Position numbers: made by a program
Assembly: GCF_044324875.1 (NCBI RefSeq)
Contig: NZ_CP172185.1
DNA length: 64,000 bases
Strand: one strand, 5' to 3'
DNA from: Escherichia coli
Lineage (GTDB): Bacteria; Pseudomonadota; Gammaproteobacteria; Enterobacterales; Enterobacteriaceae
In this document: piece after piece, positions 9,001-15,000 of the stretch
Position numbering within the stretch: position 1 is the stretch's first letter
Layout of the letters: each line of letters starts with the position of its first letter

Positions 9001-12000
9001 CGGTGCGGAACCGCCCATCGCCATCGAGCGCAGAATACGTCCGGTGCAGTACAGACCTGAGTTCAGGCTGGAGAGGGCAGCGGTCAGCACCACAATGTTC
9101 ATAATGCTGCCGATGTACGGCACACCCAGTTTAGAGAAAAACGTCACGAACGGACTTTGCCCCGCCTGATACGCGCTCCACGGCAATAACATAACCAGCA
9201 ACACCACGGAGCCGACGTAAAACAGGCCAATACGCCAAATCACACTGTTAATCGCTTTAGGCACCATGGTCTGCGGATCTTTACATTCTCCGGCAGCTGT
9301 ACCCACCATTTCAATGGAGGCAAAAGCAAACACTACGCCCTGAATCAACACCAGCGCAGGCAGCAAACCGTGGGGGAAGAAGCCGCCGTTATCGGTAATT
9401 AAATGAAAGCCAGTGGTGTTGCCATCCAGCGGCTGGCCGCTACCGAGGAACACTGTACCCACGACCAAAAAGGTCACAATGGCGAGCACTTTAATAAGCG
9501 CAAACCAGAACTCCATCTCCGCAAACCATTTCACACCGATCATATTCATGGTGCCAACGATGGTCAGCGCAGCGAGCGCAAAGACCCACTGCGGCACGCC
9601 GCCAAACGCACCCCAGTAATGCATATACAGAGCGACGGCGGTGATATCGACAATTCCCGTCATCGCCCAGTTGATGAAGTACATCCAGCCTGCAACGTAA
9701 GCGGCTTTCTCTCCTAAAAACTCACGGGCATAAGAGACAAAACTGCCACTGGAAGGGCGGTGTAACACCAGCTCACCCAATGCACGCAGAATAAAAAATG
9801 AAAACAGGCCGCAGATTAAATAGACCAGTGCCAGTGCTGGCCCCGCCATTTGCAGTCGGGCTCCTGCACCTAAAAACAAGCCGGTGCCAATCGCGCCGCC
9901 AATGGCGATCATCTGCACCTGGCGATTGCCCATCGCTTTGTGATACCCCTCTTCGTGGGCATTAAGCCAGCGGCGTTTCGCGGCGTGTTGATCTGAAGTG
10001 TCGGTGTCGTGTTTACTCATTGCTCTCCCTGATTGCTTTAATGAAAAAGTCATATAAGTTGCCATGAACAATGTTTATTCATCCTGGCGATGATAGTTAT
10101 CACCATTATTCTTTATGGGTATAAAACTATCGGCGCAGCATCCTACCCGTTATCGATAAACGATGCAAAACATCCCCTTACAATCCTGAAGGGAATTTAT
10201 ACAACTGACAAAAAATGACCATCCTTTTGCAGGTTAACCTGTGTGCTGTCCTACACTTAATCTTTAAAGGATTGTGAGGGGCATATGATTAAGTTGTATG
10301 GCGTACCCGGATGGGGCTCTACAATCAGTGAGCTGATGCTAACACTGGCTGATATCCCTTATCAGTTCGTTGGTGTCAGTGGTTTTGACCACGAGGGAAC
10401 TTCACGCGAGTTATTGAAAACCCTGAACCCGTTGTGTCAGGTTCCGACACTGGCGCTGGAAAATGACGAGATTATGACGGAGACAGCGGCGATTGCATTG
10501 ATGGTTCTCGATCGTCGCCCGGACCTTGCGCCACCGGTTGGGCGCGCCGAACGTCAGCAGTTTCAACGGCTATTGGTCTGGCTGGTTGCTAATGTCTATC
10601 CAGCGTTTACTTTCGCCGATTACCCTGAGCGTTGGGCATCTGACGCACCTGAACAGTTAAAGAAGAATGTAATTGAATATCGCAAATCGCTTTATATCTG
10701 GCTGAATTCACAATTGACCGCTGAACCTTATGCCTTTGGTGAGCAACTAACGCTGGTGGACTGTTATCTCTGCACCATGCGCACATGGGGGCCGGGGCAT
10801 GAATGGTTTCAGGATAATGCCACGAATATCAGTGCGATTGCTGATGCTGTATGCCAGATACCAAAGTTACAAGAAGTACTAAAAAAGAATGCCATTATTT
10901 AGCAATAATGCCGGAGATTAATGTTAATAAATCACCGGCAAAGTTAACTGGACGTCCATTTGTTTGCTATGAATGGTAATTGAAGATAGTACAACTATTT
11001 ATATGATTGATGAAATTTCGTTTTTTATATTAAATATCAATTTGATTTAATCTGAAAATAAAACATCTTTTCGCATATAGAGAAACATGTCGATATGATA
11101 GTGCAGTGCAGATCATGTCATCAGGGTAGGGCGGTAGCGTATTTAATCAGGGAAAGATTACGCAATGCTGCTTTTTTGTATTGAACGATTCGCATTTTAT
11201 GTTTAAAAATTGCGATATTCCTTATTTCCTGAAGCTGTTTTTATTGCTTATACATGATCAAATACTCCTTACATAATTAAGGGGAACAAAATGGAACTTA
11301 ATACACGCCAACAATTTGTATTACTTAAATAGACCAGTGAAGGTACGTATCAGAATATCCGGTGAAGTGATTAATATTTCGTTGAATATTTCTCCGGATT
11401 TTTGAAACCTGCTGCTGTAGAAATTCTGAACAGGAGGAATTATGCCCTTAGCCGCCAAACTTACCGACAAAGGCACCCAGCACGACGGTTATTACGAGAC
11501 CGTCATCATCGCCGGGTCATCCACCGTTTTTATCGATGGTCTCCCCGCAGCCCGCCAGGGAGATCCGCTGACGCCGCATGCTAAACCGAAGCATCCCCCT
11601 CATCCCCGTAAAATCGCCAGAGGTTCTTCAACCGTCTTTATTGACGGTCTGCCCGCCGCCAGAAGCGGTGATGCTGTTGACTGCGGCGGCGTGGTTATCG
11701 GTGGCGGTACGGTAAATATAGGCTGATATGTCTGAGAGGTATTTATGTCCTTAAAAGGTCTTCACTTTACGCTGGAGGTTGACGGCCAGGAGCCGGACAC
11801 CTTTGCAGTGGTGCATTTCAGGTTAATCCAGAACCAGTCTTATCCGTTTGTGATGAGTGTGGATGTTGCCAGCGACTCTTTTATGCAGACGGCGGAGATG
11901 CTGCTGGAGAAGAAGGCGACGCTGACCATCTGGCAGGGCGTCATCCCGCTGCGTTATGTCACCGGCGTGGTGGCGGGTTTTGGCATGCAGGAGAACAATG

Positions 12001-15000
12001 GCTGGCAGATGCGTTACCACCTGCGTATCCAGCCGCCGTTATGGCGGTGCGGGCTGCGGCAGAACTTCCGTATCTTCCAGCAGCAGGATATCCGGACGAT
12101 ATCGGCCACGTTACTGAACGAGAACGGCGTCACGGAGTGGACGCCGCTGTTTTATGAGGACCATCCGGCGCGGGAGTTCTGTGTCCAGTACGGGGAGTCG
12201 GACCTGGCGTTTCTGTCCCGGCTGTGGGCGGAGGAGGGTCTTTTCTTCTTTGAGCGGTTTGCGGCGGACAGTCCGGAGCAGAAGCTGACGCTGTGCGACG
12301 ATGTGGCGGGGCTGTCACAGGCGGGGGAGTTTCCGTTTAACCCGGACACATCGGCAGGTGCGGAGACGGAGTGTGTCAGTATGTTCCGTTATGAGGCGCA
12401 TGTCCGCCCGTCATCGGTGCAGAGCCAGGATTACACCTTTAAGGTGCCGGACTGGCCGGGGATGTATGAGCAGCAGGGTGAGAACCTGAACGGACAGCTG
12501 GAGCAGTATGAGATATTTGATTATCCGGGAAGGTACAAGGATGAACAGCACGGCAAGGATTTCACGCTGTACCAGATGGAGAGCCTGCGCAGTGATGCGG
12601 AAAAGGCCACAGGGCAGAGTAATTCGCCGAAGCTGTGGCCGGGAACGCGGTTTATGCTGACGGGGCATCCGCAGAAGATGCTGAACCGTGAATGGCAGGT
12701 GGTACAGAGCATACTGTCAGGAAACCAGCCGCAGGCGCTGCACGGCAGCCAGGGAAAGGGAACCACGCTGGGCAATCAGTTAGAGGTGATACCGGCGGAC
12801 CGGACGTGGCGTCCACGGCTGCAAAACAAACCGAAGGTGGACGGGCCACAGAGCGCCATCGTCACCGGTCCTGCGGGAGAGGAAATCTTCTGCGATGAAC
12901 ATGGACGGGTACGGGTGAAGTTCCACTGGGACCGTTATCACGGGATGACGGAGGCGAGTTCATGCTGGGTGCGGGTATCGCAGGCGTGGGCGGGGCCGGG
13001 GTTCGGTAACCTGGCGATACCACGGGTGGGTCAGGAGGTGATAGTGGACTTCCTGAACGGCGACCCGGACCAGCCGATAATCATGGGGCGGACGTACCAT
13101 GAGGACAACCGTTCGCCGGGCGACCTGCCGGGAACGAAGACGCAGATGACCATCCGGTCAAAAACCTATAAAGGAAGCGGATTTAACGAGCTGCGGTTTG
13201 AAGACGCCACCAGTAATGAGCAGGTGTATATCCATGCCCAGAAGAACATGGATACGGAGGTGCTCAACGACCGGACAACGGATGTGAAACATGACCATAC
13301 GGAAACCATCGGGAACGACCAGAAGATAACGGTGGTGAAGGGGCAGACGGTTCAGGTCGGGACCAGAAAAGAAGGGGGCCACGACCAGAGTATCACGGTG
13401 GCGAACGACCGGTGCATCACGGTACGTAATGACCAGACGCTGCAGGTGACGAATGACCGGACGGTGAGCGTGAGTAATGATGACGGCCTGTACGTCAGAA
13501 ATGACCGTAAAGTGACGGTGGAAGGGAAGCAGGAGCATAAGACGACGGGGAACCATATCAGTCTGGTGGAGGGAAAGCACAGCCTGGTGGTGAAGGGGAA
13601 CCTGGCGAGGAAGGTGAGTGGCGCGCTGGGGATAAAGGTGGACGGGGATATCGTGCTGGAGAGCAGCAGCCGGATAAGCCTGAAGGTGAGTGGCTCGTTT
13701 GTGGTCATCCATTCAGGGGGCGTGGACATCGTCGGGCCGAAAATCAATCTCAATAGCGGCGGTAGTCCGGGGACGCCGGTGCCGGCGCTGCAACCGGCGG
13801 TGCTGAAGACACTGGGGGATGAGAAGAGTGGTGATGGCAGTGATTCCGGAGAAGAAAATGAAGACTCTGGAGGGAACTGCGTGACCGGAAGTGGTGGTGA
13901 TGATCGAGGTGACGATGAGGATGAACCTGAAAAATATACTCTCCAGTTCCATTTTACAGACGATGACGGGATACCGTATTCAGAAACCCGCTACATTGCC
14001 TTCTTTGAGGATGGCACGCAGACCCGCGGAGAAACGGATGAAGAGGGGTATACAGAGCGTTTTTTTGTATCTAGCAAACATGAAATTAAAGTGAAGTTGT
14101 TATTTGCGAATGATGATTTTCTCTCAATGGAAGGACACTATGGACGATAATAATCAAACTTCTGGACAACCAAAGCCAGAGCCAGAAGAATGTGTGAAAG
14201 AGCAAAAAATAACTGATCATTTTAAAATAATGATTGATAAGGCTCGTAAGGCACAAAAGTTGGTTTTGATAAAAAGAGCAGATGATCTTTTGAGATGGGG
14301 AGCACAGGAGGAATATGATTTCAGTAAGATCTTTGGTGTTAAAGGAAATAAGGAGGTTAATATAAGAAAATATGGACATAATACAGGTAGGCGCATGAAT
14401 GCTAGATTTCTTATGATGGATGGTGTGAGAAGATTAATGATTATAGCTAATGATTTAACAATGAGCAGTTTTATAAATTATATGGATTTGCCCCTATATT
14501 TCCAGACATCTGTTATCACTTAACCCATTACAAGCCCGCTGCCGCAGATATTCCCGTGGCGAGCGATAACCCAGCGCACTATGCGGATGCCATTCGTTAT
14601 AATGCTCGAACGCCTCTGCAAGGTTCTTTGCTGCCGTTAACCCGTCTGGTTTGGGCATGATACTGATGTAGTCACGCTTTATCGTTTTCACGAAGCTCTC
14701 TGCTATTCCGTTACTCTCCGGACTCCGCACCGCCGTGTTCTTCGGTTCAAGTCCCAACATCCGGGCGAACTGGCGTGTTTCATTAGCCCGGTAGCATGAA
14801 CCATTATCGTAACCGGCTCATTTAAACCGTCTGGTCTGTTTCCTCCGGCTCTACAAAAATAATGTCCATCATTTTTAATGGACACTATCGTATGAAACAC
14901 CGGACCTGGATCACTGAAGCTTTACGTCTTCACTTTGAAGAACATTTACCCCGGGTTGTGGCCGGGCGTCGCCTGGGTGTACCAAAATCAACAGTTTGTA

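Follow-up and report, generated by a model that had tools for sequence, protein, structure and literature searches.

A known type VI secretion accessory cassette at the rhsE site of Escherichia coli with a metallopeptidase effector gene broken by nested insertion sequences

The window analysed here, a stretch of 64,000 nucleotides (64 kb) from Escherichia coli (contig NZ_CP172185.1), carries directly after yncG a pair of genes for a PAAR tip protein and a VgrG spike protein of a type VI secretion system (T6SS). The locus, which extends from yncG to yddH, is an already known T6SS accessory cassette at the site that is taken by rhsE in K-12, and it is decayed in this strain. Very probably it has to be read as a T6SS-2-type auxiliary effector cassette composed of PAAR, a VgrG with a transthyretin-like (TTR) domain, an M35-like metallopeptidase effector and an immunity protein, which has been disarmed in the present strain. 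Nothing at the locus falls outside known kinds, and its sole strain-specific feature is a nest of insertion sequences (IS) in the effector gene. The initial annotation, which was based on the DNA sequence alone, described a PAAR-VgrG island without Rhs core at 10903-14150. An auxiliary PAAR-VgrG pair without Rhs core is indeed present and its elements lie where they had been placed (Table 1), but that description overlooked the IS-broken cargo gene, the frameshifted immunity gene and the fact that the cassette is already common, annotated and partly characterised, and with its end at 14150 it truncates the effector gene, the start of which lies at 14140.

The 801-amino-acid (aa) protein possesses the gp27/gp5 homology expected from its first description. 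It matches the Pfam families Phage_GPD (PF05954, 7e-74), Phage_base_V (PF04717, 7e-14) and, twice, Gp5_trimer_C (PF22178, 2e-21), scores 598 bits against a cut-off of 186 with NCBIfam TIGR03361 (1.7e-179) and finds solved VgrG spikes as its best matches in the PDB (about 4e-86); the gp27-like part, the gp5 OB-fold and the beta-helix trimerisation region of a VgrG/TssI protein are all there. The gene is free of frameshifts and its product differs from that of enteroaggregative E. coli (EAEC) 042 by eight substitutions (99% identity). The PAAR gene, 18 bp upstream, encodes the domain of about 90-100 residues with PAAR motif that is expected of a T6SS tip protein beside vgrG, matches NF033420 over its full length (157 bits, cut-off 124) and differs from the 042 protein by a single substitution.

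Along the VgrG polypeptide the gp27/gp5 core is followed by an extended beta-helix up to about residue 675, a linker rich in Gly, Ser, Asp and Glu (about 690-728) and a short terminal module (about 731-801), the acidic linker and the module both having been recognised in the initial annotation. An AlphaFold2 (AF2) model shows the module as a small beta-sandwich (pLDDT above 90 for residues 731-786) between a disordered linker and a tail of low confidence, and the top PDB match of this model in Foldseek is 6SJL, the structure of EAEC VgrG1 bound to Tle1. Single-sequence phmmer searches of the PDB with the C-terminal 127 residues returned noise only and profiles were needed; a profile of the module matched the N-terminal TTR part of 6H56, the C-terminal structure of Pseudomonas aeruginosa VgrG2b (3.9e-6), and residues 737-831 of EAEC VgrG1 in 6SJL (1.8e-5). 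VgrG thus ends in a TTR-like domain that is homologous to those with which EAEC VgrG1 and P. aeruginosa VgrG2b bind cargo; the TTR domains of these two proteins have been cited as cargo-related (PMC6899460). Relatives of the last 161 residues are found on VgrGs of Escherichia, Salmonella, Citrobacter, Enterobacter and Buttiauxella and have in common the pattern Y-x-LQFHFTDDDG-x-PY...G-x-TD-x-EG-x-TE. The VgrG polypeptide contains no catalytic toxin domain, since nothing follows the TTR domain and tail before the stop at 14150, and in all alleles examined the peptidase is encoded in a separate, overlapping open reading frame (ORF).

From the C-terminal extension of VgrG a dedicated cargo encoded nearby had been predicted. 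A gene for a zinc metallopeptidase of M35 fold does overlap the vgrG stop, but it has been turned into a pseudogene by the IS nest and a 5-bp deletion. The ATG of the effector gene overlaps the vgrG stop by 11 nt (ATGGACGATAA), with GGAAGGA 4 nt upstream, and an overlap of 8-14 nt is present in every allele examined, an arrangement which suggests that the effector is translationally coupled to vgrG. Here, too, single-sequence phmmer searches of the PDB gave noise only and profiles were needed. The relatives of the effector number 29 among 5.8 billion proteins (from Escherichia, Salmonella, Buttiauxella, Franconibacter and Rahnella), and the profile of the family matches AsaP1 at 1.8e-6 with the HEXXH motifs aligned. 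H162, E163 and H166 do not vary among 19 homologues and line up with the HEXXH zinc motif of AsaP1 and GfMEP; likewise invariant in the alignment are C161, D183 and a C-terminal NAYNxERYF motif (N221-F229). The invariant Asp D183, a candidate for the third zinc ligand that M35 peptidases have downstream of HEXXH, follows the second His after about 9-10 residues in short alleles and after 17 in this allele, which carries an insertion, and the GTXDXXYG consensus is not kept. The fold is that of the M35 family and Foldseek is in agreement. As compared to the M35 aspzincins (Grifola frondosa peptidyl-Lys metalloendopeptidase, AsaP1, deuterolysin), with which it shares only 16-21% identity, the effector has neither a secretion signal nor a propeptide, possesses the conserved C-terminal NAYNIERYFE motif and would be delivered by a T6SS.

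The intact form of the locus is known from other strains. Among complete genomes the nearest to this region is that of EAEC 042 (99.5% identity over 24 kb; the window is nearest to phylogroup D strains like 042). There, yncG is followed in turn by PAAR, VgrG (801 aa), a 'peptidase M35' of 263 aa that begins before the vgrG stop and overlaps it, a hypothetical protein of 273 aa, a remnant of ISAs1 and two further hypothetical genes, after which comes yddH. Collinearity of the window with 042 extends over positions 1-14482 and resumes from 21164, the 6.68 kb in between being an insertion. We searched a reference set of 5426 complete E. coli genomes by megablast with window positions 10800-14600 and found the same arrangement in 515 of them, 042 included; about 510 have the cassette annotated in intact form, with a layout that is free of rhs. 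In strain BCE049 the yncG-yddH locus corresponds to 'effector locus 1' (FQU84_13600-13645), whose M35 protein is identical to the 042 allele at 262 of 263 positions. When tested, the BCE049 protein inhibited growth of E. coli, being toxic only when sent to the periplasm (PMC7904677). The 042 genes EC042_RS08380-RS08395 and module 5 of 'T6SS effector locus 1' of BCE049 (PAAR, VgrG-O2, M35 peptidase; PMC7904677) hence share site and gene order with the window, which differs from both in that nested IS2, IS66-family and IS21-family elements interrupt its effector gene, which also carries the 5-bp deletion; BCE049 has in addition an extra upstream PAAR-VgrG-DUF2169 module. Hundreds of E. coli genomes carry an annotated copy of the cassette and its toxin was tested before, so that the locus is of small value as a discovery. 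The gain lies in its correct annotation, which is a T6SS-2 auxiliary PAAR-VgrG(TTR)-M35 effector-immunity module with an IS-inactivated effector, and not an 'orphan spike without cargo'.

The insertion in the effector gene consists of three elements nested in one another: an IS2, within it an IS66-family element and within that an IS21-family element, the names being taken from annotated matches. All three levels carry matching target-site duplications (TSDs) of the expected lengths (Table 1), so that an assembly artefact is unlikely and was rejected as an explanation. The M35/IS2/IS66/IS21 junction is spanned in none of the 5426 complete genomes. As it stands, the 5' fragment of the effector gene runs 13 codons into IS2 and lacks the HEXXH motif. 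The 3' fragment has in addition suffered a 5-bp deletion at about 21237 that shifts its frame relative to 042; even with the IS nest taken out in silico, the gene is therefore still broken, with HEMSH out of frame.

Table 1. Features of the yncG-yddH cassette in the window (positions are those of the window)
Feature	Position	Strand	Details
yncG	10285-10902		ORF map
AT-rich leader, yncG to PAAR gene	10903-11441	+	539 bp, GC 0.31-0.34
Left-end remnant of ISAs1/H-repeat element inside leader	11173-11301		130 bp, 93% identical to region just upstream of K-12 ydcC plus its start
PAAR tip protein gene, intact	11442-11726	+	94 aa; Pfam PAAR_motif (PF05488) 5e-21; NCBIfam NF033420 1e-46
VgrG/TssI spike gene, intact	11745-14150	+	801 aa; Pfam, NCBIfam and PDB matches
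VgrG C-terminal putative cargo module, TTR-like beta-sandwich and tail	13935-14147	+	sandwich at residues ~731-786
Effector-allele-specific part, last two TTR strands and 15-aa tail	14058-14147	+	VgrG residues 772-801
5' fragment of M35-like effector gene	14140-14482	+	codons 1-114; collinear with 042 'peptidase M35' WP_000342577
Nested IS insertion	14483-21164	-	6682 bp; breakpoints vs 042 and BEN2908, junction sequences, TSDs
IS2	14483-14808 and 20152-21164	-	ends TGGATTTGCCCC... and ...GGGGGCCAGTCTA; 5-bp TSD TTATA
IS66-family element inside IS2	14809-15039 and 17679-20151	+	8-bp TSD CCATTATC
IS21-family element inside IS66-family element	15040-17678	+	TG...CA ends; 5-bp TSD GTGGC
3' fragment of M35-like effector gene	21170-21613	+	codons ~115-263, including HEMSH; alignment to 042
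Putative immunity gene	21637-22457	+	273 aa in 042; split into 87-aa and 167-aa ORFs
3' remnant of ISAs1/H-repeat transposase gene, right boundary of cassette	22513-22976	+	464 bp, 95% identical to 3' end of K-12 ydcC; NCBIfam NF033564 7.5e-34

The gene downstream of the effector gene, that of the 273-aa protein, is split by a 1-bp deletion in a poly-A tract at about 21865-21871, which counts seven A residues here (A7) as compared to eight in 042 (A8). The N-terminus of its product is a signal-peptide-like segment, as judged by inspection (MLQAIKKIIIMTIVNIIFFYSFQSTA), and the protein is homologous across alleles, with LDYLGGxC and LNDxYxFxP motifs. Nissle-like strains contain orphan copies of the gene without the toxin, as is typical of immunity genes.

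A comparison of alleles connects the C-terminus of VgrG with the effector. Nissle 1917 has two PAAR-VgrG modules at the yncG-yddH site, and its second VgrG, which is also of 801 aa, stays in register with the VgrG of the window up to residue 771 and then diverges fully over the last 30 residues; in this module the M35 allele and the immunity gene, too, are not those of the window. Two further alleles were added and all identities computed to the window/042 type (Table 2). One of these is encoded in a T6SS-2 core cluster, directly after the cluster VgrG (locus L009, 4501-5289), and the other between clpV and tssM of a T6SS-1 cluster (locus L011, 4501-5304; 30% identical, in a cluster of 754 member sequences). 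M35-like effector alleles thus also occur inside T6SS core clusters, and the same TTR domain is found on both types of VgrG.

Table 2. Identity of three alleles to the window/042 type
Allele	VgrG core	TTR	Last 30 aa	Effector	Immunity
Nissle module 2	95%	88%	21%	36%	28%
In T6SS-2 core cluster (tssB/tssC/hcp next door)	96%	95%	48%	57%	41%
Behind DUF2345-type T6SS-1 VgrG	26%	61%	36%	37%	29%

From these identities it follows that the TTR domain travels with the effector family across VgrG classes and that the extreme C-terminus of VgrG tracks the effector allele. As indirect evidence, this pattern of co-variation fits an effector that docks straight onto the TTR domain and tail of VgrG. One may speculate further that the last two TTR strands together with the 15-residue tail constitute an exchangeable 'address' which dictates the M35 allele, and that TTR-tail, effector and immunity gene move as one cassette between unrelated VgrG cores, although we regard this as a tentative proposal that may well turn out to be wrong. 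The co-variation table offers a small, testable handle on the choice of cargo by TTR-type VgrGs.

The arrangement resembles two systems with a TTR domain on VgrG. Like EAEC Sci-1 VgrG1-Tle1, in which the TTR domain binds the cargo (6SJL), the cassette combines a homologous TTR-like sandwich on VgrG with an effector gene immediately downstream, and this position suggests that cargo is loaded directly, without a separate adaptor gene. The two differ in that the EAEC VgrG1 core is of the T6SS-1 type with DUF2345 whereas that of the window is of the T6SS-2 type and has no Pfam match to DUF2345, and in that the cargo is a phospholipase in EAEC and would be a metallopeptidase here. P. aeruginosa VgrG2b/PA0261 (PMC6899460) likewise combines a TTR domain with a HEXXH metallopeptidase that acts in the periplasm and an immunity protein with signal peptide. 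VgrG2b, however, is a fusion of VgrG, DUF2345, TTR and metallopeptidase, whereas here the toxin is a separate overlapping gene and the catalytic domains are not detectably related. It could nevertheless be argued that the effector and the C-terminal metallopeptidase of VgrG2b are homologous, the former having simply been split off as a gene of its own: in the crystal structure of the VgrG2b C-terminal region the TTR part is matched by the TTR domain of the window VgrG (3.9e-6), both toxins share the HEXXH motif, action in the periplasm and signal-peptide immunity proteins, and the VgrG2b toxin domain has been labelled 'M35' (PMC10673891). We consider such a common origin improbable. The effector does not retrieve 6H56 and its descent from a VgrG2b-type peptidase is therefore unsupported, which leads us to regard the two toxins as analogous and not detectably homologous.

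Which machine would fire the spike? Apart from PAAR and VgrG, the annotation transferred from 042 places no T6SS structural gene within the window. Strain 042 has a complete T6SS-2-type core cluster at aspV, and residues 1-490 of the window VgrG are near-identical to the VgrG inside that cluster. Similarly, VgrG-O2 of BCE049 clusters with the T6SS2 VgrG of that strain (PMC7904677). For the intact cassette we infer the docking on TTR domain and tail, the translational coupling, the firing by T6SS-2 and the substrate of the enzyme along the following lines. Three VgrG chains would form the spike and PAAR would cap it, while the metallopeptidase, probably made by translational coupling to vgrG through the 11-nt overlap, would dock on the TTR domain and the allele-specific last 30 residues of VgrG. 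The loaded spike would then be fired by a T6SS-2 machine encoded elsewhere, the peptidase would act in the periplasm of the target bacterium and the periplasmic immunity protein would shield sister cells. In the present strain the cassette is disarmed, as the IS nest splits the effector gene after codon 114, the 5-bp deletion disrupts the remainder and the poly-A frameshift interrupts the immunity gene, with PAAR and VgrG still at full length.

Some observations weigh against this reading as an effector-immunity cassette. The match of the effector to Pfam Aspzincin_M35 is weak (i-E 0.005) and neither NCBIfam nor PADLOC contains a model for the effector or for the immunity protein; because of this weak match and of the gap in NCBIfam the assignment to the M35 family rests on fold and profile evidence. 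The 273-aa protein is a putative immunity protein by its position, its signal-peptide-like N-terminus and its co-variation with the effector. Moreover, the A7 tract was counted directly in BCE049 (L007), and UM146 (L014) encodes an identical 87-aa ORF (WP_001546602), implying A7 there as well, whereas 042, BEN2908, Nissle and EC21GDE043 have A8. BCE049 and UM146 consequently keep an intact toxin beside an A7-frameshifted immunity gene, which is not as predicted for a strictly essential immunity gene. The tract could undergo recurrent slippage, serve as a contingency tract or lie in a dispensable N-terminal part of the protein, and A7 in the window could also be a homopolymer sequencing error. 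Recurrent slippage between A7 and A8 may precede the disarming of the toxin by IS elements.

But why are PAAR and VgrG full length when both downstream genes are damaged? One explanation is that the pair is kept as a structural or alternative spike for T6SS-2, alone or in heterotrimers, with other cargo or none, so that the island is partly functional. Both genes are free of frameshifts, and their products differ from those of 042 by only one and eight substitutions, respectively. As the core-cluster VgrG of 042 has a near-identical core, mixed trimers are plausible, and heterotrimers of VgrG have indeed been proposed (PMC7904677). Their intactness, however, may reflect only the short time that has elapsed, and the fact that vgrG is hit by IS66 in BEN2908 and truncated in RM13516 argues against strong selection for the gene. 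We therefore think of a retained spare spike as possible but rather doubtful. Somewhat more credible, though still short of an even chance, is that the whole island is a silent, decaying relic, either silenced by H-NS or orphaned by a missing T6SS-2 core, in which PAAR and VgrG have not yet been mutated. The effector-immunity pair has suffered three independent lesions, the region is heavily loaded with insertion sequences (IS2 in two copies, an IS66, an IS21 and one IS200-like element), and the AT-rich leader yields no promoter signal above chance. The island also decays independently in other lineages: an IS66 lies inside vgrG in BEN2908, an IS3-family element between vgrG and the effector gene in EC21GDE043, O145:H28 RM13516 has a truncated vgrG and a fragmented effector gene, and in FCI48 the immunity gene is split differently. 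What speaks against an orphaned relic is that 042, so closely related here, has a complete T6SS-2-type cluster. The T6SS-2-type effector cassette is one more case in which a weapon against other bacteria decays through IS elements in a lineage rich in them.

The absence of yncH and rhsE, noted at the outset, is confirmed by comparison with K-12 MG1655. Homology of the window with MG1655 ends exactly at the last base of yncG (10902); the MG1655 interval between yncG and yddH comprises yncH, rhsE (a pseudogene), ydcD, yncI, ydcC and pptA, and in the window the PAAR-VgrG cassette occupies this site. No rhs core or YD-repeat ORF is found within the 64 kb by the ORF map and the annotation transferred from 042, in line with the initial annotation, and the inserted segments are IS elements. 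The K-12 RhsE element thus shares with the cassette its integration site and ISAs1/H-repeat remnants on the right side, whereas the window lacks the rhs core, yncH and ydcD and has a different toxin system at the site. ISAs1/H-repeat remnants are classically Rhs-associated, and their presence on both flanks, together with rhsE at the K-12 site, might be taken to indicate a degraded VgrG-Rhs island that has lost its rhs core, either by deletion or in the course of assembly. Yet the window minus the IS nest is collinear base for base with 042, with the M35 gene directly overlapping vgrG, the rhs-free layout is common to about 510 complete genomes and a YD-repeat ORF is absent, all of which leaves hardly any room for this explanation. 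With no YD-repeat ORF and with the peptidase in a separate ORF, the locus is neither a Rhs element nor an evolved toxin-fused VgrG.

The leader between yncG and the PAAR gene, initially given as about 540 bp and AT-rich, proved to be just that, its GC content of 0.31-0.34 contrasting with 0.55-0.62 inside vgrG. When the leader was scanned for promoters and terminators, nothing exceeded chance, the sigma-70-like sites numbering 3 as compared to 3.0 expected from shuffles.

The yncG-yddH site holds further modules in other strains. In Nissle 1917 the extra upstream PAAR-VgrG module (locus L004, 1683-7409) comes with a DUF4123 adaptor and a 516-aa effector, and the one in BCE049 (L007, 20159-24203) consists of PAAR-VgrG with DUF2169 and a PAAR-like protein. 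On account of these extra modules the site is to be seen as a multi-module T6SS effector hotspot. The cassette in the window is bracketed by both ends of an ISAs1/H-repeat element (Table 1), and in BCE049 ISAs1 remnants also lie between the two modules; such remnants may act as recombination handles for the exchange of modules at the hotspot. Between the right ISAs1 remnant and yddH the window contains two ORFs of low GC content (about 0.29) at 23074-23535 and 23993-24628 (153 and 211 aa), which are conserved in 042 as hypothetical genes and match nothing in NCBIfam or PADLOC. Earlier occupants of the hotspot might have left them behind as orphan immunity genes or toxin-tip remnants.

Elsewhere in the window, a second copy of IS2, not present in 042, lies at 36060-37387 between narU and a leucine-rich-repeat gene, and an insertion of about 705 bp relative to 042 is located at 47523-48227 between fdnI and yddM, where the ORF at 47615-48124 resembles an IS200/IS605-family Y1 transposase by sequence inspection. 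The second IS2, the IS nest and the IS200-like element together indicate an IS-rich lineage. Finally, a 759-bp in-frame deletion relative to 042, with its junction at 61821-61824, has fused dosC to dosP at 59486-62533 (- strand); this junction is spanned by none of the 5426 complete genomes. With the deletion dosC has lost 670 bp at its 3' end and dosP about 20 codons at its start, and the outcome is a single ORF of 1015 aa from the dosC start, in which the N-terminal 236 or so residues of DosC, that is the globin sensor part without GGDEF, are fused to DosP.

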